DNA of 63,630 nt, filler included. It is 5 parts of 5 records of this genome, joined end to end, with 100 filler letters (N's around TTAATTAATTAA, not from the genome) between each part and the next. Parts side by side here need not be neighbours in the genome. Positions count along the whole stretch, not along the records: positions 8,510 to 19,547 come from SRR31156797_11423; 4 more parts are not named here. One strand, written 5' to 3'. Position 1 is the first letter of the stretch. Every line of letters starts with the position of its first letter. The notes beneath the pieces are model-generated. The model saw nothing but the letters and a program-made list of their open reading frames with translations. It did not search any database and was not told the origin of the DNA. Below, in pieces: positions 8,410-58,560 of the stretch. The position numbers and the translations under genes are program-made.

Positions 8410-8509
8410 NNNNNNNNNNNNNNNNNNNNNNNNNNNNNNNNNNNNNNNNNNNNTTAATTAATTAANNNNNNNNNNNNNNNNNNNNNNNNNNNNNNNNNNN
8501 NNNNNNNNN
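8410..8509. other. Artificial contig spacer
   Basis: N run containing TTAATTAATTAA (stops in all frames); base composition changes abruptly across it. Confidence 0.97.
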
Positions 8510-9451
8510 CTTACTATTATGGAAGAAGGAACTGAGTTGCTTGGCCGTTTACAAAAACATTTGGCTGGCGACAAAGAAGTTAAACTTCCAATTCTTACTT
8601 CTTGTTGTCCGGGATGGGTTAACTTCTTCGAAAGTAATTTCCCGGATATGTTAGATGTGCCTTCAACTGCTAAGTCACCTCAACAGATGTTTGGTGCAAT
8701 TGCTAAAACATACGTGGCTGAAGAGTTAGGAATTAAGCGCGAGGATATGGTGGTTGTTTCAATCATGCCTTGTCTAGCTAAAAAATATGAAGCGCAACGC
8801 CCTGAATTTGCTGTTGATGGTAATCCTGATGTTGATTTCTCTTTATCAACTCGTGAGTTAGCGCAAATGATTAAAGGAGCTAACATCAACTTTGAAGATT
8901 TAACTGATGAGGATTTTGATAATCCAATGGGAGAATCTACAGGTGCGGGTGTTATTTTTGCCAACACAGGTGGTGTAATTGAAGCGGCTGCTCGTACAGC
9001 TTACGAAGTTCATACCAAGAAAAAGTTAGATAAAGTGGAGTTCGAAGCTTTACGTGGTTTCGAAGGTATTCGTTCTGCTACAGTTGATTTCGACGGACTT
9101 CCAATTAAAATAGGTATTGCTCATGGTTTAGGTAATGCTCGTAAACTATTAGAAGATGTACAAGCTGGTAAATCAGAGTTTCATGCTATAGAAATTATGG
9201 CTTGTCCTGGTGGATGTATTGGTGGTGGTGGTCAGCCTTATCACCATGGAGATACCAGCATCCTTAAAAAGAGAGCTGCTGCAATTTACCGTGAAGATGA
9301 AGGTAAAACAATCCGTAAGTCGCATGAGAATCCATTCATTGTAAAATTATACGAAGAGTTCTTGGGTGAGCCTTGTGGAGAGTTGTCTCACAAGTTGTTG
9401 CATACACACTATTTTGATAAGAAAAAGAAAATTGAAATCAATAACGACTAA
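8510..9451 (+). CDS. [FeFe]-hydrogenase catalytic subunit, 5'-truncated
   Basis: H-cluster motifs TSCCPGW, MPCLAKKYE and EIMACPGGCIGGGGQP, plus SHKLLHTHY. Confidence 0.95.
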   Translation, partial: LTIMEEGTELLGRLQKHLAGDKEVKLPILTSCCPGWVNFFESNFPDMLDVPSTAKSPQQMFGAIAKTYVAEELGIKREDMVVVSIMPCLAKKYEAQRPEFAVDGNPDVDFSLSTRELAQMIKGANINFEDLTDEDFDNPMGESTGAGVIFANTGGVIEAAARTAYEVHTKKKLDKVEFEALRGFEGIRSATVDFDGLPIKIGIAHGLGNARKLLEDVQAGKSEFHAIEIMACPGGCIGGGGQPYHHGDTSILKKRAAAIYREDEGKTIRKSHENPFIVKLYEEFLGEPCGELSHKLLHTHYFDKKKKIEINND

Positions 9452-9456
9452 GAGTT

Positions 9457-9933
9457 ATGGCAGAGTTAAAATTAGCTGAAAGCAAAGTTCAGGAACTAAA
9501 GGACGTTTGCAAAAAGTTCGATTACGATAAAGGCGAATTAATTAATGTGCTGCACGCTGCCCAGGGAATTTTTGGGTATTTGCCTGCTGAAGTACAGGAA
9601 ATTGTTGCCGACCAATTAAATGTGAATATTGCTCATGTATATGGTGTAGTTACTTTCTATTCTTTCTTTACCATGATTCCTAAAGGGGAGCATCCTGTAT
9701 CCGTTTGTATGGGAACAGCTTGCTACGTGCGTGGTGCAGAAAAAGTACTAGACGAGTTTAAGCGTTTGTTAGATGTAAAAGTCGGAGAAACTACTCCTGA
9801 TGGTAAATTCTCAGTAAGCAGCCTTCGTTGTGTTGGAGCATGTGGATTAGCTCCGGTAGTAACAGTAGGTGAAAAAGTTTACGGTAGAGTAGCACCTGAA
9901 GATGTGAAAGATATTTTAGCAGAGTACAATTAA
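9457..9933 (+). CDS. NuoE/HndA-like [2Fe-2S] hydrogenase subunit
   Basis: VVTFYSFF, CMGTACYVRG and CVGACGLAP motifs. Confidence 0.92.
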   Translation: MAELKLAESKVQELKDVCKKFDYDKGELINVLHAAQGIFGYLPAEVQEIVADQLNVNIAHVYGVVTFYSFFTMIPKGEHPVSVCMGTACYVRGAEKVLDEFKRLLDVKVGETTPDGKFSVSSLRCVGACGLAPVVTVGEKVYGRVAPEDVKDILAEYN

Positions 9934-9957
9934 AACTCAGATAAAATAAACAAAGAT

Positions 9958-9989
9958 AAACCCGTTCTGCTTGTTGGAACGGGTTTTTT
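9958..9989 (+). terminator. Intrinsic terminator of the hydrogenase operon
   Basis: AAACCCGTTC/GAACGGGTTT stem followed by a T run. Confidence 0.8.
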
Positions 9990-10206
9990 ATTTCCAGATA
10001 AAGGTTAGTAGTCATAGATATAATTAGCTGTCCTTCTAAATGTCTAGAAAGAAAGGAGGAGTTCCACGAAACATGAGCGGTTAATACAATGAACTTAATT
10101 ATAACAACAAAAATTCGGTTCACTATATTTAACATTCGGCAACTATCTTTTATGATAAAATCCAATCATACATTCAGAATGATTGTACACATTTGCAAAA
10201 AAAAGA

Positions 10207-11121
10207 ATGCGCATAGATAAAGTGAAAGGGCATATGGCTATGATAGTAGCCAATATATCATGGGGGTTAATGGCTCCTTTTGTGAAAACGGTGGTGCTAG
10301 AAAGTAATATAAACGCTTGGAATATTGTTGCTTTTAGAGTTGCCGGTGCTGCCCTGGCATTTTGGATGACATCTTTTTTTATACCACGCGAAAAGGTAGC
10401 TCCAAAGGACTTACTCAAGCTGATATTTGCGGCGCTGTTTGGTATTATTCTTAATCAGGGAGTATTTGTGTTGGGCGTTTCCTACACATCACCAATAAAT
10501 GCTTCCATTGTAACCACTACTCTGCCTATAATTGCCATGATTATCGCGGCTTTTTATCTGAAAGAACCCATTACCTGGAAAAAGGTGGCGGGGATTATTG
10601 TAGGGGCATGCGGCGCTTTAATTATCATATTAAACAGTGCCAATGGCAATGGCACGGGAGATTTAGGTTTAAAAGGAATTTTATTGTGTTTTATGGCGCA
10701 GTTTAGTTATGCGGTATATTTCGTATTCTTTAAAAAAGTAATCAGCAAGTATTCGCCCATTACTAATATGAAATGGATGTTTTTATTTAGCTCGCTTATT
10801 TACATACCGCTTACCTGGTCGCAAATTACAAATATTGAATACGCTACTTTACCCTCTTCGGTGATAGGTGAACTGGCATTTATTGTTTTAGGCTCAACAT
10901 TTTTATCATATATGATGATTCCGATTGCCCAAAAATATCTGCGCCCTACTGTGGCTACCATGTACAATAATGTGCAACCTATAGTGGCCTCTATTGCCGC
11001 CGTGCTGTTACAGCTCGATTATTTTGGATGGTATAAAACGCTCGCGATTCTTTTGGTGTTCACCGGTGTTTATTTGGTAACTACAAGTAAGGCTGTAGAA
11101 ACAGAAAGTGTGGAGGAGTAA
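10207..11121 (+). CDS. EamA/DMT family transporter
   Basis: About ten TM segments in two EamA-like repeats. Start set at MRIDKV. Confidence 0.85.
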   Translation: MRIDKVKGHMAMIVANISWGLMAPFVKTVVLESNINAWNIVAFRVAGAALAFWMTSFFIPREKVAPKDLLKLIFAALFGIILNQGVFVLGVSYTSPINASIVTTTLPIIAMIIAAFYLKEPITWKKVAGIIVGACGALIIILNSANGNGTGDLGLKGILLCFMAQFSYAVYFVFFKKVISKYSPITNMKWMFLFSSLIYIPLTWSQITNIEYATLPSSVIGELAFIVLGSTFLSYMMIPIAQKYLRPTVATMYNNVQPIVASIAAVLLQLDYFGWYKTLAILLVFTGVYLVTTSKAVETESVEE

Positions 11122-11214
11122 AACTGGAATTAAGAAGGGATTGAAGCTTTGAGCGTATATCCTTAATAATTTCGAAGAGTAAATGGCTTTAGTATAAAAA
11201 GGCGAGAATTGTAT

Positions 11215-11465
11215 TGAGCTAGGGAAGTTTGTCCTATTACTATGGGAGATTATTCCCATTTACTATAGGAGAATCGTCCCCTTACCATCCACCGATCGTT
11301 TCCATTAGTATCCTCCAGTCGCTTCCATTGGTATTCTACAAATGTTTCCATTACTATGTCGAAGACTTTGATATGAGTATGTCACAAATATTGGCATGAG
11401 TATGTCGCACTCTTCGACATTACTATGTAACACTCTTTTATATGAGTATGTCGCAAGGTTCGACA
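11215..11465 (+). repeat. Degenerate tandem array of 11 units of 22-23 bp, many forming 6-bp hairpins
   Basis: Units start at 11215, 11237, 11260, 11282, 11305, 11328, 11351, 11374, 11397, 11420 and 11443, with a T(T/G)A(C/G)TAT-like head. Confidence 0.85.
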
Positions 11466-11635
11466 TGGAGATATCGTGATTTAATCACTGATTAGTGAAG
11501 GAACTTTGTTTGTTGTTTGATTCGGGCTTTGGAGTATTCTGTTGGGATAACAAACTGTAAAAGGTTAGTGGGGGGAGTTCTTTACTTATATCAGGTTATA
11601 GATCGATATGGAAAGCTCAGTTTGTCAGTGTTTAT

Positions 11636-12040
11636 TTAGATCTCTCTATCAACCCAATTTTCAATTTGAATATTCGAAATCCTATCAAACTCTTTTGTAT
11701 TTTCAGTTACCATTACCAAATCTTTTTCAACAGCAGTACAACCGATTAATAGATCAAAATCACTTATAGGAGTTCCATTTTTTCTTAATCGGGCTTTCTC
11801 TTTTCCATATAAGTAAATAGAGTCGTAAATAGGCAGAATTGTTATTTGGTCTACAAATAGGTCAATTAAATGATGATTTTTTTGTGGATTTGCGCTGTTT
11901 TCGGCTCCATAAACAAGTTCTGCAAGTGTTATTTCAGATATGGCACATTGATTTATTCCTGCTTCAACAAGCTTATCAATTAATCCGAATTTACCTTTGA
12001 AAAAATGAATACAAATGTTGGAATCAAGTAGATACTTCAT
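11636..12040 (-). CDS. vapC: VapC PIN-domain toxin
   Basis: YLLDSNICI, ITLAELVYG, DLLIG and VTENTKEF motifs. Confidence 0.92.
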   Translation of the reverse strand: MKYLLDSNICIHFFKGKFGLIDKLVEAGINQCAISEITLAELVYGAENSANPQKNHHLIDLFVDQITILPIYDSIYLYGKEKARLRKNGTPISDFDLLIGCTAVEKDLVMVTENTKEFDRISNIQIENWVDREI

Positions 12041-12279
12041 TAGAATTCAGCTAAGTTATCTTTGTCAGTTCTTGAAGCTCTTAATTCATTGATTATTTCA
12101 TCAGAATCTTTTGAATCATCCCAAGCACCGTATAAACTACTTAAATCGAAATTTTTGTCATCACTAACTTCTATTGATTCGGTTAGTTTTACAATTAACT
12201 TCTTCTTCGATTTGTTATCTAACTTTGTCAAAAAACTAAAATATTTATCTATCGCTCTATTTGATAATGCAAATCCCAT
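12040..12279 (-). CDS. Putative antitoxin of VapC
   Basis: Small protein whose stop overlaps the vapC start; acidic C-terminus LYGAWDDSKDSDEIINELR. Confidence 0.75.
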   Translation of the reverse strand: MGFALSNRAIDKYFSFLTKLDNKSKKKLIVKLTESIEVSDDKNFDLSSLYGAWDDSKDSDEIINELRASRTDKDNLAEF

Positions 12280-12367
12280 AAGCAAAAAATTACTTTATTC
12301 AAATATACAACAATTAAGAAGACTAAGAAGTTTTCTGTTTATGTGAGAACTATTGATAGGAATGTCT

Positions 12368-13552
12368 TTAATATTTATTGAGGATGGGATTTACCATTAA
12401 CTTTTCCTGTAGTTTCTGACGACGTACCAATAAGACGACGAACATAACGGCAATGATTAAATATCCCATACCAATAATGGAAGCATAATTTACACCCATA
12501 TTGTAATCGATAGATAAGCCTCCGCTGTACGATCCTAATGCATTTCCAAAGTTAAAGGCGATTTGAATCATGGCGGCTCCCATCATTTCACCTCCTCTGG
12601 AATTTTGTAAAACCAATAGCTGGTTGGGTGCACCTACCATAAACAAACAACAGGTACAGATACACATCATAAAAATGGATAAGTAGGATACAAAGGGTAG
12701 TAAAAAGATCACCACCATAGCTACGGCTGCAATGGAGTAAGCCATAGCCACTACGGATGCACTACGAAAACGATCGGATAGTTTCCCTCCGAAAACATTA
12801 CCCAGCACCATGCTAATACCACTTAGCATCATAATCCAGGTCATGTCCGAAGCTTTAAAACCCGACATGTCGGTCATGAGTGGCGCTATATAGCAGTAAA
12901 AACAAAATATACCACAATTTCCTAATCCGGTAGCCAATAGTATAAACCAGGGTTCAGGGTTTTTTAGGAATTTAAACTGGCCTTTTAATCCGCTATCAGG
13001 AAGAGGCGCTAAGGATGGCATCCACTTTAATAAGAAAAACAGGTTAAAAGCGCCCCAGGCACCGGTAATGTAAAATATCAATCGCCACGAAAAATGATTA
13101 CAGATATAAGCGCCCAGCGGTACGCCTATTAAATTCGCAATCGTCATTCCCGACACCATAATAGCCATAGCCGTAGAGCTTTTCCCTTCGTCGGCGAGTT
13201 TTTCGGCAGCAATAGAACCTACACCAAAAAAGGCACCATGTGGTAATCCGGAGATAAATCGCATGGCCATCATAAACCAGTAGTTATGTGATAATCCGGC
13301 CATGGTATTGCCCACGGCATACAAAAATATTAATAAGAAGAGCACTTTTTTTAGCGGGAACTTGCGGGCACTCAGTAACACCACCGGAGCACCAACACAT
13401 ACACCTATGGCATAAGCCGAAATCAAGTGACCTGCCGAAGGAATACTTACCGACATATCTTTGGCCACATATGGCAAAATACTCATCATTACAAATTCGG
13501 CAATACCCAAACCAAAGGTTCCTAAAGCTAAAGGGACTAAACTCTTCTTCAT
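12368..13552 (-). CDS. MFS transporter (AraJ-like)
   Basis: LALGTFGLGIAEF and RFISGLPHGAFFG motifs; about 12 TM segments. Confidence 0.85.
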   Translation of the reverse strand: MKKSLVPLALGTFGLGIAEFVMMSILPYVAKDMSVSIPSAGHLISAYAIGVCVGAPVVLLSARKFPLKKVLFLLIFLYAVGNTMAGLSHNYWFMMAMRFISGLPHGAFFGVGSIAAEKLADEGKSSTAMAIMVSGMTIANLIGVPLGAYICNHFSWRLIFYITGAWGAFNLFFLLKWMPSLAPLPDSGLKGQFKFLKNPEPWFILLATGLGNCGIFCFYCYIAPLMTDMSGFKASDMTWIMMLSGISMVLGNVFGGKLSDRFRSASVVAMAYSIAAVAMVVIFLLPFVSYLSIFMMCICTCCLFMVGAPNQLLVLQNSRGGEMMGAAMIQIAFNFGNALGSYSGGLSIDYNMGVNYASIIGMGYLIIAVMFVVLLVRRQKLQEKLMVNPILNKY

Positions 13553-13683
13553 TATTAAGCATCAATTATTTCAAGTGCAAAAATAAATGAGAGAATTGAT
13601 GCGTACAATGTGCAGAGCGTTAATTAAGTATAAATTGTGGGGTATTAGGATAATATGACGAACTAGGTTTTACTTGCTATGCT

Positions 13684-15006
13684 TTATAATGAGTTCTCAA
13701 TGGTTTCTATCACTTTTTCTTTTTTCAGAATATATAGCCCCAATCGATCTGCTGTAATACCTTCTTTTATAAGATAGGTATAGTTTGGTTTATCATTAAG
13801 CATTTTAGCTTCAAAATATTGGAATTTAACCTTTGGGTTATTCTGAAGTCTTTCAGCCGCTTCAACAATATGAGTCGATATAAAATATATTCCTTTATTA
13901 ATTTTAGAAAGCGCTTCAATCACGGAATAAGATGCTTCATAGGCATCTTTAACATTTGTACCTCTAAATAATTCATCGAATACAATAAATAAATTTCCAT
14001 AACTTTTAATTTTTTCTGCTACTTGTTTTACTCTTGATACTTCGCTATAAAAGTGGCTGTAACCTTTATTGATACTGTCGGATAAATTTATGGTGGTTAA
14101 TATTCCGCTAAAAAGAGATAGTTGCAGTCTTTTTGCTGGAATCGGGAAGCCGATATGTGAAAGAAAAATAGAAATACTTAGTGATTTTAGAAATGTTGAT
14201 TTTCCAGCCATATTTGGTCCTGTTAAAATACAAATATGATGGTCTTTCATTTCAAAATCGTTTTTTACAGGATCTTGGATAAAAGGATGAAACAGACCTT
14301 CGGCTTTTAAAAAATTATTATCAGTTGTAAACTCAGGTAGCGTAAAATTGAATTTAATAGCAGCATATGCAATAGATGAATATGCATCTAATTCATAAAA
14401 TAAGTGTAAAATTTCATTGAATCTTATTGATTCCGCTTTTCTAAAAAGGTGATCTAATCTGCCAATTTCGTGCGGATTTAGCTTTTGGGCATCTTTATAG
14501 TTTAAAACTATTTTTAGTTTTGATTTCTCTATCTTGTCTCGAATATTTTGCTTTAACTCTTTAATGTATTGACAACTAAAATCTACCGATTCATCAAGTG
14601 AATATTCGTATAGTTCATTTAATAAATGAATTGAAAACTTAATGCCTTTTTTAATTAAATAGTACTCGTTGTCAGGACTATATAAATATTTTAGTTCCCG
14701 GATATATGATTTTGTAATAGAGAATCTATTAGGCACATTTTGTTGAGATAAATAGTATTCTATAAAATCAATACAGTCTTTCTTTAGAACTATGAAAGGA
14801 CATACTTTCTGAAGATATCTGATTGCCTCAATTCGAATGTTTATTTCGTTAATGTTGGATAGTGGATTAAGGAAATAGCTGAAAAGTATTTTCTTGCCTT
14901 TTTTTGTTTTTGTATGATTAAATATAGAAAAGATTGATTTTTCACCATTTAAATTATCTAATATATCTAAATCATTATACGTCTGGTTATCAATTTCAAA
15001 GTTCAT
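13684..15006 (-). CDS. Short MutS-related ATPase (domain V plus partial core; no mismatch-recognition domain I)
   Basis: TGPNMAGKST, SHFYSEV, FDELFRGTN and STH motifs; only 440 aa. Confidence 0.85.
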   Translation of the reverse strand: MNFEIDNQTYNDLDILDNLNGEKSIFSIFNHTKTKKGKKILFSYFLNPLSNINEINIRIEAIRYLQKVCPFIVLKKDCIDFIEYYLSQQNVPNRFSITKSYIRELKYLYSPDNEYYLIKKGIKFSIHLLNELYEYSLDESVDFSCQYIKELKQNIRDKIEKSKLKIVLNYKDAQKLNPHEIGRLDHLFRKAESIRFNEILHLFYELDAYSSIAYAAIKFNFTLPEFTTDNNFLKAEGLFHPFIQDPVKNDFEMKDHHICILTGPNMAGKSTFLKSLSISIFLSHIGFPIPAKRLQLSLFSGILTTINLSDSINKGYSHFYSEVSRVKQVAEKIKSYGNLFIVFDELFRGTNVKDAYEASYSVIEALSKINKGIYFISTHIVEAAERLQNNPKVKFQYFEAKMLNDKPNYTYLIKEGITADRLGLYILKKEKVIETIENSL

Positions 15007-15286
15007 TGATTTCTTTTATGGTTTCTACACTTTCATCAAAGTTTATACCATGTTTTTATGTCAATGATTAGAATTACTATTTATTATTTCGTTTTCTTGT
15101 GATCTGCTAAAATAAATGCCGTTTTTAATTATAATTGATTCCTTCCATTTTCTTCCTAGTCCAGAAAATATATTTAGAGGTCGGTAGTTAAGCATTTATC
15201 AATTCTGTCTGATAAATTTGATTTGCATCGACCTCTATCATTTTATATTCTACAATTTTGGTTCATTCTTAGCTACCTAAAATGGC

Positions 15287-15417
15287 ATACAACAATACAG
15301 CTATAGCCTGTGCCACATTTTTCAGAATACAACTTAGCTTATTAGCATTACGTGCTTTCAAAATTAAGTTTCAATAAACAAACAAGCTGCGGCATTGGCT
15401 ATTAGCTGATGTTATGC
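15287..15417 (-). mobile_element. attC-like integron cassette recombination site (131 bp)
   Basis: Minus strand reads R'' GCATAAC, 5 nt, L'' CTAATAGC ... L' GCTATAG, 7 nt, R' GTTGTAT. L'' is the reverse complement of L' plus one extra base. It starts about 20 nt after the blaR1-like stop. Confidence 0.75.
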
Positions 15418-15439
15418 ACTTATGGTTTTTAACTATCTA

Positions 15440-16684
15440 TTAATTCCATACAAGAGTAAGACGAGCTCCATAACCTTCAGGTGTCAACTGATATTTAAAT
15501 GATTTAAATGAAGCAGCTGGTTCACTTTTATTAGAATTAAAGTAACATTTTTGTATCGTACCATTGTCGCCACTTAAAATCCCTTTTTGTAAATCATGCG
15601 TTCCCTCATTTACCTGTATTATTTCATAAAAATCATTGTGTCGCACTATAAATAATGCATTATTTAAACTCACAATTTTATTATTAATGGAGTTTGTTTT
15701 ACCCATTTCGAAGATATATTCAAAATTATTGAATGCACTTATTTGGATATTGTGTTTTTCAATAATTGGGAACCACCATTCTTTTTCGTAGTTTTTCAAA
15801 CTATCTTTAGGTATGGTTTTTTGACCATATGTAATGGTAACAGCCAATAAATAAACCAAAGGAAATATTGCAATTTGTCTTACAATAGTTTTTACTAAAG
15901 ATTCTTTTCTTTTCATCATAATTAGTCTTTTTTTAGTAAGTGAGAAATTTAAATCACTGGCCAGATATGTTGAGTTATTTCGAAATACAAGATTTAATAA
16001 TATATTTTGATAATCTTTTAGGTTTTGCGATTGTAAAACTCTCTTATCAGCAAGGTATTCATGGTTTAATTGAAGTTCTTTCTTAATAATCCATATAACA
16101 GGATTGAACCAGAAAATTATTTTAACTATTTCAACTAATAATATATCCAATGAATGATATTGCTTACAATGAGCCTGTTCATGTGAAATTAAACTATTAT
16201 CTATTTTACCATTTTCGAACTCAGTTATATTTACAATAATGTAATTCAGAAAAGAGTATGGCAATGTTTTATCTGTCGATAGTATGATATGGGGTAAAGT
16301 ATTAACAACTATTTTAGAATTCTTTATTGTGTTGGTAATTTTATACAAATTGAAAACAAATCGAAACGATAAGATACAGGAAATCAAAATATAAACTACA
16401 TATAAGATATGATGTAAATTTAATGTATTATTTATTTGTTCTTTTTCAATTGTCCCTTGTACACTAATGTTATTAATTGAAGAGGAATAATCCTCAATGC
16501 TTTGGCTAATTGCTAAATTGAAATCTGTTGTGATTTGAATAAAAGGAATTATAAATGAAAAGAGTATCGCAAATAGTAAATAAAAACGATTGAATTTAAA
16601 TGTCTTTATATTTTTGAGAAATAATAAGTACAATAAATATAATATCGTAATACTTACTGTCGATTTGATAACATACTCAATCAT
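15440..16684 (-). CDS. BlaR1-like M56 metallopeptidase sensor
   Basis: FNRFYLL, HEQAH (HExxH), FWFNP, HEYLAD and KKRLIMM motifs. Confidence 0.9.
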   Translation of the reverse strand: MIEYVIKSTVSITILYLLYLLFLKNIKTFKFNRFYLLFAILFSFIIPFIQITTDFNLAISQSIEDYSSSINNISVQGTIEKEQINNTLNLHHILYVVYILISCILSFRFVFNLYKITNTIKNSKIVVNTLPHIILSTDKTLPYSFLNYIIVNITEFENGKIDNSLISHEQAHCKQYHSLDILLVEIVKIIFWFNPVIWIIKKELQLNHEYLADKRVLQSQNLKDYQNILLNLVFRNNSTYLASDLNFSLTKKRLIMMKRKESLVKTIVRQIAIFPLVYLLAVTITYGQKTIPKDSLKNYEKEWWFPIIEKHNIQISAFNNFEYIFEMGKTNSINNKIVSLNNALFIVRHNDFYEIIQVNEGTHDLQKGILSGDNGTIQKCYFNSNKSEPAASFKSFKYQLTPEGYGARLTLVWN

Positions 16685-16685
16685 A

Positions 16686-17063
16686 TCATTTTTGTTTTTT
16701 GTTGGTTTCTAGTTTGTTATCAACAATCTGTTTTAATTCCTCTAAGTCCTTTGTACTTAAATTTGTCTCGTTAGTGAAAAATGAAGCAAATTGAGAGGCA
16801 GAATTATTAAAGAAATCTTTAACCAAAGAATTAATTTGTTTTGAAAAATATTGATTCTTTTTAATCAATGGATAATACTCTCTGTTACTGCCATGTTGGT
16901 TAAATCCAACAAATCCTTTGTCAATCATCCTTTTTAATAAGGTTGCAAGAGTAGTTGAGGCAGGCTTTGGTTCTGGAAATTCTTCTCGAAGATTTTTCAT
17001 ATATGCTTTCTCCAATTTCCAGAGGTGTCTCATTACTTGTTCTTCTGCATTTGTCAATTGCAT
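16686..17063 (-). CDS. BlaI/MecI/CopY family repressor
   Basis: LTNAEEQVMRHLW, TTLATLLKRMIDKGFV and YYPLI motifs; directly upstream of the M56 gene. Confidence 0.93.
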   Translation of the reverse strand: MQLTNAEEQVMRHLWKLEKAYMKNLREEFPEPKPASTTLATLLKRMIDKGFVGFNQHGSNREYYPLIKKNQYFSKQINSLVKDFFNNSASQFASFFTNETNLSTKDLEELKQIVDNKLETNKKQK

Positions 17064-17080
17064 GATTCTAAATTTTGAAA

Positions 17081-17121
17081 TTATACTCTACAAATGTAGA
17101 ATATAATTTCAGATTGTCAAA
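17081..17121 (-). promoter_or_regulatory. BlaI-type operator overlapping a Bacteroidota sigma70 promoter
   Basis: Palindrome TTATAcTCTACA-AA-TGTAGAaTATAA (17081-17106) with a TACAnnTGTA core; minus strand has TTTG, 19 nt, TACATTTG (-33/-7). Confidence 0.8.
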
Positions 17122-17162
17122 TATATATTGCTTTTATTTTATGCAGTATATTTCTTCCACTT

Positions 17163-17171
17163 GTGCCTAAC
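17163..17171 (-). mobile_element. Cassette 5' boundary core site GTTAGGCAC
   Basis: Matches GTTRRRY and is complementary at 8 of 9 positions to GTGCATAAC at the cassette's 3' end. Confidence 0.6.
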
Positions 17172-17298
17172 AGAACAATAATCGTAATTGCGTGTATCGT
17201 TTTTAACTATGCGAACGCATATACATAATAAATATAGGGTAGCTGAATTATTTAACTTAAAACTCTGGTTTCTATATTGGATTAATTATTTCTAGAGC

Positions 17299-17332
17299 AA
17301 AAAAAGCCCGTTCTGATGAATCAAAACGGGCT
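17299..17332 (-). terminator. Intrinsic terminator
   Basis: AGCCCGTT/AACGGGCT stem with a minus-strand T run downstream of the reductase gene. Confidence 0.75.
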
Positions 17333-17354
17333 GATAATATTATATGGAAAGGAA

Positions 17355-19355
17355 TTAATTGCGCGACATCATGGCTGCAATTCCTCCTCCGTTTTTAACG
17401 TTTGAAAATCCACGGCTTTCCAGTATTTGTTTGGCATAAGCCGAACGTGCACCGGAAGCACAGTAAACAATGATTTCTCTATTAGGCTCGCCTAAATCTG
17501 CTCTGTTGGCCATAATATCATCCAAAGGAATATTTACGGCTTCAGGGAATGCACCTCCCATAAACTCCTCACGGGTTCTAACATCTACAATCACTCTGGC
17601 ATTTTGGTCTACTTTTTCTTCCTGTGCTGCTTCTGGCTTTTCTTCCTCTGCATGATCTTCAATTAGTTTATCTTCAATAGGAAGAATACCAATCTGCAAA
17701 TGATTAAAACCAACGGTAATAGCTTGCCTTTGTAAAGAGGTGTGACCACCTGAAATATTAACCACCTTTTTGTATCCGGCTCCAACCAGCGTTCTTAATG
17801 CCTGGTGACCTTTTTTCCCGGTTTCATCATACACAATAATTAATCGGTCTGCAGGCAATTCACTTACATGCTCAGCCAATAGCTCCAATGGAATATTAAC
17901 GGCTCCTTCTACATGACTTTTACGGAATGCAAAAACATCACGCACGTCAATAAATAAATGGCTCTTACCTTCAATCAGTTGATCTAATTCAGATACAGTA
18001 ACCGATGGACTAAAACCAGACATTTTGTTTTCAGCTGTATAAGCAGCCATGTTCATCGCATCATTGGCAGTTCCAATTGGTGGTGAATAAGCAAAATCGA
18101 TATCCGCTAAATCGCTAACGGTTAATTTAGCCGCTGTAGCAGTAGCAATAATATCCAATCGTTTATCCGCACCCTTGTATCCAGCTGTTTGTCCTCCTAG
18201 TATAATACCTGTTTTTTTATCGAATACCACCAATACCGAAACCGTTTCTGCACCCGGATAATATGAGGTATGATGTTCCTTATGAACGACAACCGCATCC
18301 GCATCAATACCGGCTGCTTTGGCTTGTTTCAACGATAATCCGGTTGTTCCGGCAACAGCCTCAAACACACGAACCACAGAAGTGCCAATAGCACCTTTGT
18401 AGGCATGATCTCCGCCTAAAGCATTCTCAGCAGCAATACGTCCTTGTCTGTTTGCTGGTCCTGCCAAAGGAATACGAACTTTTTTATTGAACACACGATG
18501 CTCCAGTTCAATCATATCTCCAGCCGCATAAATGTTATCGTCAGATGTTTTAAGTCTGTCATTTACCAGTAAACCACCTGCTTCACCAATCGCCAAACCA
18601 GCGTCAATGGCTAATTGTAATGTTGGTCGTACCCCAATGGATAATAAAACCATATCTGCTTCCAGTTCTTTACCATTGTCCAGAATAACAGAATCAGGAT
18701 GGATTTCAGTAACGCCGGAGTTGGTATGCACACCCACGCCATACGAATGCAACTCTCGCTCTATAAAACCAGCTGTTTCGGCTTCCATAATGGACATAAC
18801 GTGAGGCATTTTTTCAACCACGCTTACTTTTAAGCCTCTTTTTACAAGCGCTTCTACCATCTCCAAACCAATAAAACCACCACCTACAACAACAGCTGTT
18901 TTAGGATTGCGTTCTTCCAGGTGATAGGTAATCTTATCCATATCCTCCAGTGTCCAAAGTGTAAACACATGGTCGTTATTGGCTCCCGGAAGATCAGGTG
19001 CAATTGGACGTCCGCCCTGAGCTAAAATCAGTTTGGTGTATTCAAATTCTTTGTGTTCACCGCTTCTTCCATCAATCGCTTTAATCACTTTGTTTTCTCT
19101 TTCGATGGAAGTTACAATGGTATGTATATGCACTTCAACGGCATATTGCTCGTTAAAGCTTTCGGGGCTTTGTAATATCAGTTTCGAACGACTTTTAATA
19201 TCGCCGGCTATATAATAAGGTAATCCACAGTTGGCAAATGAAATATCCGGACCTGCTTCAAGCATCGTAATTTTTGCATCCGGTGATAATCTTCTTGCTT
19301 TGGCTGCTGCTGTTGCTCCTGCAGCAACCCCTCCGATAATGATAATTTTTTCCAT
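17355..19355 (-). CDS. CoA-disulfide reductase with two rhodanese domains (Npsr-like)
   Basis: GGVAAG, SFANCGLPY, GGGFIGLE and AYSPP motifs; rhodanese loops YDETGKKG and YCASGARS. Confidence 0.88.
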   Translation of the reverse strand: MEKIIIIGGVAAGATAAAKARRLSPDAKITMLEAGPDISFANCGLPYYIAGDIKSRSKLILQSPESFNEQYAVEVHIHTIVTSIERENKVIKAIDGRSGEHKEFEYTKLILAQGGRPIAPDLPGANNDHVFTLWTLEDMDKITYHLEERNPKTAVVVGGGFIGLEMVEALVKRGLKVSVVEKMPHVMSIMEAETAGFIERELHSYGVGVHTNSGVTEIHPDSVILDNGKELEADMVLLSIGVRPTLQLAIDAGLAIGEAGGLLVNDRLKTSDDNIYAAGDMIELEHRVFNKKVRIPLAGPANRQGRIAAENALGGDHAYKGAIGTSVVRVFEAVAGTTGLSLKQAKAAGIDADAVVVHKEHHTSYYPGAETVSVLVVFDKKTGIILGGQTAGYKGADKRLDIIATATAAKLTVSDLADIDFAYSPPIGTANDAMNMAAYTAENKMSGFSPSVTVSELDQLIEGKSHLFIDVRDVFAFRKSHVEGAVNIPLELLAEHVSELPADRLIIVYDETGKKGHQALRTLVGAGYKKVVNISGGHTSLQRQAITVGFNHLQIGILPIEDKLIEDHAEEEKPEAAQEEKVDQNARVIVDVRTREEFMGGAFPEAVNIPLDDIMANRADLGEPNREIIVYCASGARSAYAKQILESRGFSNVKNGGGIAAMMSRN

Positions 19356-19488
19356 ATGAATATTTATTTTTTATTATTTACTGTTTTATTCGGAATCCTC
19401 ATATGATTCCTAATTATTATGGTGTCAAAAATAGTAGCCTCTGCCTTCATTCTAAAAGAAATGCAGTTGAAACAGATCCGGTTCTGAA

Positions 19489-19502
19489 TTGATCTTGCTC
19501 AA
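19489..19502. promoter_or_regulatory. Possible FNR/Crp-like box
   Basis: TTGATcttgCTCAA, one mismatch to TTGAT-N4-ATCAA, upstream of the reductase. Confidence 0.3.
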
Positions 19503-19547
19503 CTTTTTTATTGTTATTAACCTGAGTTCGACATAAAATTTCGGATT

Positions 19548-19647
19548 NNNNNNNNNNNNNNNNNNNNNNNNNNNNNNNNNNNNNNNNNNNNTTAATTAAT
19601 TAANNNNNNNNNNNNNNNNNNNNNNNNNNNNNNNNNNNNNNNNNNNN
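19548..19647. other. Artificial contig spacer
   Basis: N run with TTAATTAATTAA. Confidence 0.97.
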
Positions 19648-40260: not shown

Positions 40261-40360
40261 NNNNNNNNNNNNNNNNNNNNNNNNNNNNNNNNNNNNNNNN
40301 NNNNTTAATTAATTAANNNNNNNNNNNNNNNNNNNNNNNNNNNNNNNNNNNNNNNNNNNN
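40261..40360. other. Artificial contig spacer
   Basis: N run with TTAATTAATTAA. Confidence 0.97.
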
Positions 40361-58460: not shown

Positions 58461-58560
58461 NNNNNNNNNNNNNNNNNNNNNNNNNNNNNNNNNNNNNNNN
58501 NNNNTTAATTAATTAANNNNNNNNNNNNNNNNNNNNNNNNNNNNNNNNNNNNNNNNNNNN
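58461..58560. other. Artificial contig spacer
   Basis: N run with TTAATTAATTAA. Confidence 0.97.

Follow-up and report, generated by a model that had tools for sequence, protein, structure and literature searches.

Integrons are held to be rare in Bacteroidota, and in the prevailing view the IntI-specific domain of the integrase is required to recombine folded attC sites. A survey of complete RefSeq genomes with IntegronFinder 2 lists for Bacteroidota only In0 elements and one Salinibacter integron and advises caution on single-attC calls (PMC9024848), two reviews name the phylum among those with integrons (PMC8618304, PMC9668308), and a classification of tyrosine recombinases describes the IntI insertion as 'not fully conserved' in its integron-like subgroup (PMC8138268). 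For a cluster of attC sites lacking integrases (CALIN), the default threshold of IntegronFinder 2 is two sites. A second described system is that of the rAID-1 clusters (short for recombinase-associated acquired interbacterial defence), which combine a XerD-like recombinase with co-oriented low-GC genes (bioRxiv 10.1101/471110; PMC12247911). In the preprint, rAID-1 clusters are reported from 226 of 423 Bacteroidales genomes, the 5' XerD-like recombinase is required to be >44% identical to BF9343_RS08045, and the repetitive intergenic sequences are, in the authors' words, 'reminiscent of integrons' (bioRxiv 10.1101/471110). The locus compared here with these systems is a pair of blaI-like and blaR1-like genes followed by an attC-like site, on the minus strand of a contig at positions 8510-19547 of a 63,630-nucleotide stretch of DNA (the window). 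The window consists of at least five unrelated contigs with GC contents of 28-63%, joined through runs of N at 8410-8509, 19548-19647, 40261-40360 and 58461-58560.

Window positions 17170-15291 (minus strand) are probably a genuine integron-type cassette (cassette 1), part of a lineage-wide integron-like system that a long Xer-like recombinase would serve in trans. All of the elements listed for this segment in an initial annotation, made from the letters of the sequence, were recovered on the minus strand when the sequence was re-read. The R''/L''/L'/R' geometry with one extra L'' base, an A, was confirmed base by base (Table 1): an R'' ending in AAC, an L'' box, a loop, an L' box and an R' opening with GTT form an imperfect palindrome with an extrahelical base, as in attC sites, the extra base being A and not C. 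The annotated complementarity of the two cassette ends at 8 of 9 positions, GTTAGGCAC against R'' GTGCATAAC, was likewise borne out, and the crossover of cassette 1 probably lies between G17171 and T17170. In the proposed mechanism, the blaI/blaR1-like pair would end in an attC-like site of ~133 nt that folds on single-stranded DNA, cassette 1 would have been inserted at a chromosomal attI-like core (17201-17174), and a MutS-like cassette 2 would follow it. A trans-acting enzyme would cut cassettes out as circles and insert them at G|TT; this enzyme is presumably the ~680-aa Xer-like recombinase heading the main array of a sister genome (G001), and the window locus would be a small integrase-less satellite of an integron-like system in Marinilabiliaceae-type Bacteroidota.

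G001, a complete and near-conspecific metagenome-assembled chromosome labelled uncultured Saccharicrinis sp., was found through the flanking reductase, the protein being 99% identical. Its version of the locus (L001) matched the window in both flanks, along 2384 nt at 96.2% identity before the break and along 1283 nt at 95.1% beyond it (blastn). Homology stops at the GTT (17164-17171) and resumes at 13648. Both sequences read ...ATTATTGTTCTGTT, followed by AGGCAC in the window and by GGCAAC in L001, which reads GTTGGCAAC at the position of the window junction; a 24-mer across the junction had no match in a metagenome contig collection. The 3515 nt of the window between the breakpoints are replaced in L001 by 2625 nt with four small open reading frames (ORFs) lacking a Pfam family, and after the first of these L001 has its own attC-like site of 136 nt (L001:13040-13175). 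This site shares the register of the window site, running from AAC through 2 nt, an L'' of 12 nt whose TAATA holds a bulged A, the third helix, L' and 4-5 nt to GTTGTA; its L-box letters differ from those of the window site in a compensating manner, its R'' is complementary to the start of its own cassette at 9 of 9 positions, and its bottom strand folded better than 200 of 200 shuffles (z -2.88). The junction is therefore a hot spot, where different cassettes follow the same GTT in near-conspecific genomes. An empty-site allele had been called for in the initial annotation; another allele does exist at the junction, with the G001 cassettes starting at the same GTT.

The sequence upstream of the junction had been described as a site without an attC arm, which proved incomplete, the site being a 28-nt copy of the attI-like core of an array head. 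At the head of the main array of G001, directly before the first cassette, stands AACGATAAAC-N7-GTTTATCGTT-AC-GTT (G001:C1:6692-6718), and sequence comparison shows the window junction to be homologous to this head of an integrase-linked array. The attI-like pattern had four matches in G001 and none in reversed controls. The four copies lie at the main array, at the window-equivalent locus, at a third locus and, with 2 mismatches, at a fourth, and one of them adjoins the recombinase gene. At the third locus (L153:1650-1975, G001:C1 about 4,877,650-4,877,975), ~330 nt of the array-head region are repeated with an identical core and without the recombinase gene, and co-oriented cassettes and sites follow.

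The logic of cassettes was examined in the main array of G001 (G001:C1, 7.5-41.3 kb), in which 27 sites all lie on the plus strand, each after plus-strand ORFs. The 6 bases after the GTT of site i were the exact complement of the 6 bases before the AAC of site i+1 in every case (26/26). Non-neighbour pairs agreed at a mean of 2.58 of 6 positions (n=703) and R'' with R' of one site at a mean of 2.7, and none of 20000 permutations reached the observed sum of flank complementarity. When the rule was used as a prediction in another genome, G086, the reverse complement of the R'' 9-mer was found exactly, 29 nt before the ORF start, as the single match within one mismatch in 9.8 kb of upstream sequence. 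Of the pairs inspected in a third genome, G019, one was complementary at 9/9 positions, one at 9/9 (10/10 on the 10-mer searched), and one differed by an indel. Cassettes with G|TT boundaries and a start complementary to their own R'' were thus seen in the window (8/9), in L001 (9/9) and in G086 (9/9). Each start carries the signature of a circular cassette, the complement of its own R'', and the starts are therefore the footprint of units that were once circular and closed at G|TT.

The site family was surveyed in 133 genomes of the family of G001. An exact motif search was not enriched (11 matches against 13 in reversed controls) but still yielded two full-length homologues, in G019 and in G086. 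The closest homologue of the window site, in a large array of another species (G086), was identical at 101 of 134 positions and stands behind a 456-aa CarbopepD_reg/thioredoxin/OMP-barrel gene; the G019 homologue of the L001 site was identical at 130 of 136 positions and stands behind a short cassette without a long ORF. Both lie within chains of such sites. Similar sites behind unrelated genes, the test proposed in the initial annotation, are thus present in G086 and G019, and the family occurs in 81 of the 133 genomes. Between L001:13040-13175 and L135:2177-2312, the site bodies were 130/136 identical across species and the R'' hexamers and cargo entirely different. From these two sequences, the site body and the cargo with its hexamers seem to be exchanged separately, which canonical R'-only crossover does not predict.

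Among the geometry scanners, only the strict structural scan was specific, with 16 matches against 1 control match in 314 kb on both strands, and the geometry of the window site was common to 13 other sites. For a covariance model (R1), 14 sites were used. MAFFT misplaced the 3' arm when two sites were aligned, and those alignments were rejected; RNAalifold on the 14 sites recovered the third helix only, so that the structure of R1 was supplied by hand. At E<=0.01, R1 gave full-length sites numbering at least 50 in G001, 44 in G019, 87 in G086, 90 in G093 and 34 in G045, these counts being lower bounds with 150 candidates scored per genome. At E<=1e-6 it defined a structured family of ~132 nt in the 81 genomes, whereas 1.36 Mb of unrelated loci, taken from the surroundings of the reductase gene in 80 genomes, gave only 4 matches, of which one had been used for training. 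For an independent model (R2), 24 sites were taken, all of the G001 main array. With filters off, it recovered the window site at full length and with exact ends (21.1 bits, E 0.0014) as the first-ranked match on the contig, the next reaching 9.1 bits; the L001 site scored 53.5 bits and sites of other genomes 25-104 bits. Across the 24 sites, 97.6% of cells paired, compared with 21-50% when partners were slid, and compensatory changes were seen at 10 of 14 pairs, a number reached by 0 of 500 shuffles. These sites form a family with a conserved, covarying structure. A further, strong site (65.6 bits) was seen in another genus, at L043:5782-5916 of a record labelled Maribellus. It shares the strand of the orthologous reductase gene and lies 2.8 kb downstream of it, and the reductase neighbourhood may host cassettes in that genome too.

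A recombinase candidate was found directly upstream of the 27-site array of G001, where a 679-aa ORF, single-copy in that genome, runs in the same direction as the cassettes. The final ~270 residues form a Xer-like tyrosine recombinase, scoring 217.9 bits with NF040815 (cut-off 220) and 192.6 bits with TIGR02249 (cut-off 265), the latter in two stretches that skip model positions ~181-240; when the protein is aligned pairwise to a true IntI from G093, the IntI insertion is short of ~45 residues. In the first ~400 residues, Pfam detected a second SAM-like domain and otherwise no match. Full-length orthologues with 42-58% identity are present in 22 of the 133 genomes, and 65 relatives were retrieved under generic names from a large protein collection. 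Among the matches listed, sites lay 1-10 kb downstream on the same strand at 10 loci of 8 genomes, and the arrays of G086 are headed by a 479-aa relative that is 44% identical over the catalytic part. The initial annotation had proposed a trans-acting, IntI-like integrase: an array-linked recombinase does exist in G001, with orthologues in 22 of the 133 genomes, but it is Xer-like and without the IntI insertion. Its statement that no tyrosine recombinase is encoded on the 11-kb contig agreed with Pfam scans of 13 ORFs of the contig (8510-19547), which detected none. That a single long Xer-like recombinase, without the insertion deemed essential, serves several scattered attI-like sites and exchanges cassettes flanked by folded sites of ~132 nt, as a multi-locus, single-integrase analogue of integrons that is common in Bacteroidota and missed by IntI-based searches, is a proposal to which we give an even chance.

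A 295-aa recombinase beside a G086 array was considered as an integrase and rejected, as it belongs to an IS91-family element present in 10 identical copies. The gene overlaps an IS91-family Y2 transposase (NF033538, 400 bits; L134:11772-13776, G086:C1 ~2,680,771-2,682,775). Most of the 10 copies lie inside three array regions of G086 and one starts ~80 nt from an attC-like site; the element may be an insertion sequence with these arrays as its target.

Several results weigh against reading the locus as a cassette of such a system. At the level of the site, the window site folded no better than shuffles (z -1.34 for the top strand, -0.82 for the bottom strand), and like its G086 homologue it escaped R2 when the default filters were on. 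With R1 and R2 it was the single detectable site in the window at E<=0.01; the R1 score of 70 bits was obtained with the site in the training set. The site is a real but divergent, weak and AT-rich member of the family. The structure of R1 came from the analyst, and the alignment used for covariation was fitted to the model. Within 66 kb, a crude geometry scan also matched 2 places by chance in addition to the target, a relaxed scan yielded 94 matches against 77 in reversed controls, and an Rfam scan of 14000-18000 gave sub-threshold chance matches only. An explanation in keeping with the poor fold, the loose scans and the lack of an Rfam family is that the 133-nt element is a chance palindrome, a terminator-like structure or a repeat of the repetitive extragenic palindrome (REP) or miniature inverted-repeat transposable element (MITE) kind, and that blaI/blaR1 form an ordinary chromosomal island. 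We find this hardly credible, being contradicted by the full-length homologues in other species, the exact ends of the R2 match, the unbroken flank complementarity in G001, the covariation and the breakpoint exactly at GTT. The significance of the window site derives from this comparative evidence, because geometry and folding alone are insufficient.

At the level of the boundaries, the far end of cassette 2 had no recognisable site (R2 7.5 bits, E 2.5, at 13612-13684), and no GTT was found where homology resumes, in the window or in L001. Homologous recombination through the flanks could therefore have replaced the segment in its entirety. A second strain-variable islet, of toxin-antitoxin type, lies 1.3 kb away, right after the MFS stop codon (window 11564-12367, L001 16099-16927), with a PIN-domain gene and an 81-aa ORF in the window and two other small ORFs, of 105 and 110 aa, in G001. 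No attC-like family site was found in this islet, by eye or by R2; it was swapped without sites, and flank-mediated replacement is therefore a partial rival. In the contigs of the sole run containing the locus, probably the source sample, no joints were found, and no recombination event was observed. The cassettes might accordingly be relics that entered site-specifically and are now fixed, the difference between the window and G001 being a segment swap through the flanks, with which the degenerate state of the window site relative to the main-array type would also agree. This is unlikely in our judgement, as the left breakpoint falls exactly on the GTT that succeeds the attI-like core, and in both alleles the start of the first cassette agrees with the R'' of that cassette, at 8 and 9 of 9 positions.

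At the level of the enzyme, the recombinase is linked to the sites by position, and the enzyme proposed to act on the window locus is taken from G001 and not from the genome to which the locus belongs. Sites were found in 81 genomes and the long recombinase in 22 at the threshold used. Canonical IntI (TIGR02249 >= 265 bits) was detected in one of the 133 genomes, G093, as two genes of 383 and 356 bits that lie within 8-17 kb of such arrays, one of them with co-oriented sites 8 kb downstream; in G045, a weak site comes 1 kb after an IntI fragment that contains a stop codon. These would be classical cassettes if the canonical IntI of other strains or species acted on them, the long Xer-like recombinase being a mere neighbour and the window locus a CALIN or single attC; the geometry of the sites and the logic of the cassettes are indeed those of attC sites. 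We consider this quite improbable. An intact IntI in 1/133 genomes contrasts with sites in 81/133, and for both IntI genes of G093 (L113-L116), the divergent side was free of sites within 20 kb. Canonical IntI was absent from the contig and from G001 (best 192.6 bits), where 27 or more cassettes are perfectly chained, and the array heads bear the long recombinase or the 479-aa relative. In the G093 array that a canonical IntI gene precedes at a distance of 8 kb (G093:C2, L116:8292-18919), eight copies of a conserved 43-100-nt element were observed just after R' at cassette starts; the element may be a shared cassette promoter or leader.

Read as an integron-type cassette with a Xer-like recombinase, the locus and its relatives were compared with the described systems. 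As in integrons and CALINs, co-oriented cassettes of one or a few genes end in an imperfect palindrome with an R'' closing on AAC, an extra L-box base, a variable loop and an R' opening with GTT; cassette starts are complementary to their own R'', an insertion site lies at the array head, satellites without an integrase occur, and content varies between close relatives. Unlike in integrons, the recombinase at the array head is without the IntI insertion, is longer by ~400 residues at its N-terminus and shares the direction of the cassettes. The sites are uniformly ~131-136 nt long (a few of 140-198), and their sequence is conserved through the loop. Their extra base is an A, read as T on the bottom strand, and by eye ~6 of the 27 R' sites of the G001 array fit GTTRRRY. 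R-box complementarity extends over 9 nt, a short dyad makes up the attI-like core, and cassette 1 has its own promoter-like motif. The canonical layout, in which attI adjoins a divergent intI and promoterless cassettes are driven from Pc, is not found: an attI-like core is present, but no integrase is next to it, the G001 recombinase is co-oriented with its cassettes, and the first cassette of the window brings that motif itself. With one site in the window and no integrase on the contig, the locus falls below the CALIN default of two or more attC sites without an integrase nearby.

The likeness to rAID-1 lies in the layout, the G001 main array having a Xer-like recombinase at its head and the window segment being low in GC; three co-directional genes at ~25-31% GC compare with the rAID-1 definition of at least two at GC <=41%. 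Unlike in rAID-1, there is no recombinase at the window locus and the cargo does not consist of immunity genes. Folded attC-type sites, end complementarity, an attI-like core and satellites do not appear in the portions of the published text available to us, and the words 'hairpin', 'excision' and 'cassette' are absent from that of PMC12247911. More widely, published text on attC-type folded sites, end complementarity, attI-like cores or satellites with this recombinase was not found, supplements lying outside the search. The layout resembles the one already in print as rAID-1.

The cargo of cassette 1 is predicted from domain content and gene order to be a self-regulated signal-transduction pair. 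As in BlaI/BlaR1 (MecI/MecR1), a Penicillinase_R gene lies directly 5' of a gene for an M56-peptidase membrane protein, and a dyad overlies a promoter-like motif. The motif sits within a 28-nt imperfect inverted repeat between the junction and the blaI-like gene; the TACATTTGTA dyad is a candidate BlaI operator in view of the TACA/TGTA motif of such operators, and TTTG/TACATTTG is promoter-like by the -33/-7 consensus of Bacteroidetes. Unlike BlaI/BlaR1, the window pair adjoins no beta-lactamase or penicillin-binding protein gene, and Pfam detected Peptidase_M56 only (residues 165-256) and no penicillin-binding sensor domain in the blaR1-like protein; nothing in the pair points to drug resistance. 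Among the 133 genomes, no second copy of cassette 1 was found, close blaR1-like relatives were absent, with paralogues of <=36% identity only, and homologues of the MutS-like protein of cassette 2, at 37-41% identity and none close, occurred in 6. On the minus strand of the contig, the CoA-disulfide-reductase/rhodanese gene is followed by the blaI-like, blaR1-like and MutS-like genes, an MFS transporter gene, a PIN toxin pair, and an EamA transporter with hydrogenase genes. The GC content of the variable segment is ~25-31%, compared with ~40% in the flanks.

Table 1. Features of the locus in window coordinates, in minus-strand order.
Feature	Position	Strand	Evidence or detail
CoA-disulfide-reductase/rhodanese gene	19355-17355	-	ends in hairpin-plus-T-run terminator
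attI-like core AACGATACAC-N8-GATTATTGTT, then CT, then crossover GTT	17174..17201	-	homology to head of G001 main array
Cassette 1 left junction GTTAGGCAC	17163..17171	-	end of L001 homology at 17164; complementarity to R''
Strain-variable low-GC segment	13649..17163	.	blastn breakpoints; GC profile; L001 sequence and ORFs
Promoter-like motif TTTG-19 nt-TACATTTG with overlapping TACATTTGTA dyad	17089..17121	-	sequence read
blaI-like repressor gene, 125 aa	16686..17063	-	PF03965 Penicillinase_R, E 8.8e-28
blaR1-like M56 membrane protein gene, 414 aa	15440..16684	-	PF05569, residues 165-256, E 1.6e-14
attC-like site of cassette 1, 133 nt	15287..15419	-	fold recovers helices; R2 match; G086 homologue
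R'' GTGCATAAC	15419-15411	-	begins 20 nt past blaR1-like stop codon
L'' CAGCTAATAGCC	15408-15397	-	extra A at 15403 or 15402
Third helix, GC-rich, inward of L boxes	15394-15389 with 15316-15311	-	recovered by fold
L' GGCTATAGCTG	15308-15298	-	11 pairs with L''
R' GTTGTAT	15293-15287	-	sequence read
Cassette 2	13649..15292	-	starts at TT of R'; L001 homology resumes at 13648
MutS-like ATPase gene, 440 aa	15006-13684	-	PF00488 MutS_V, E 2.4e-32; PF05192 MutS_III, E 3.6e-11

Chains of cassettes of textbook form are thus present in most genomes of one Bacteroidota family (81/133), behind a recombinase without the IntI domain, and satellites lacking an integrase stand at additional attI-like sites. 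Since the window supplies a clean pair of natural alleles at a single junction, the hypothesis lends itself to direct tests. If the recombinase acts on these sites, the range of enzymes able to drive cassette capture would be wider, the published rAID arrays would gain a mechanism, and a large pool of cassettes would have been missed by IntI-anchored surveys.

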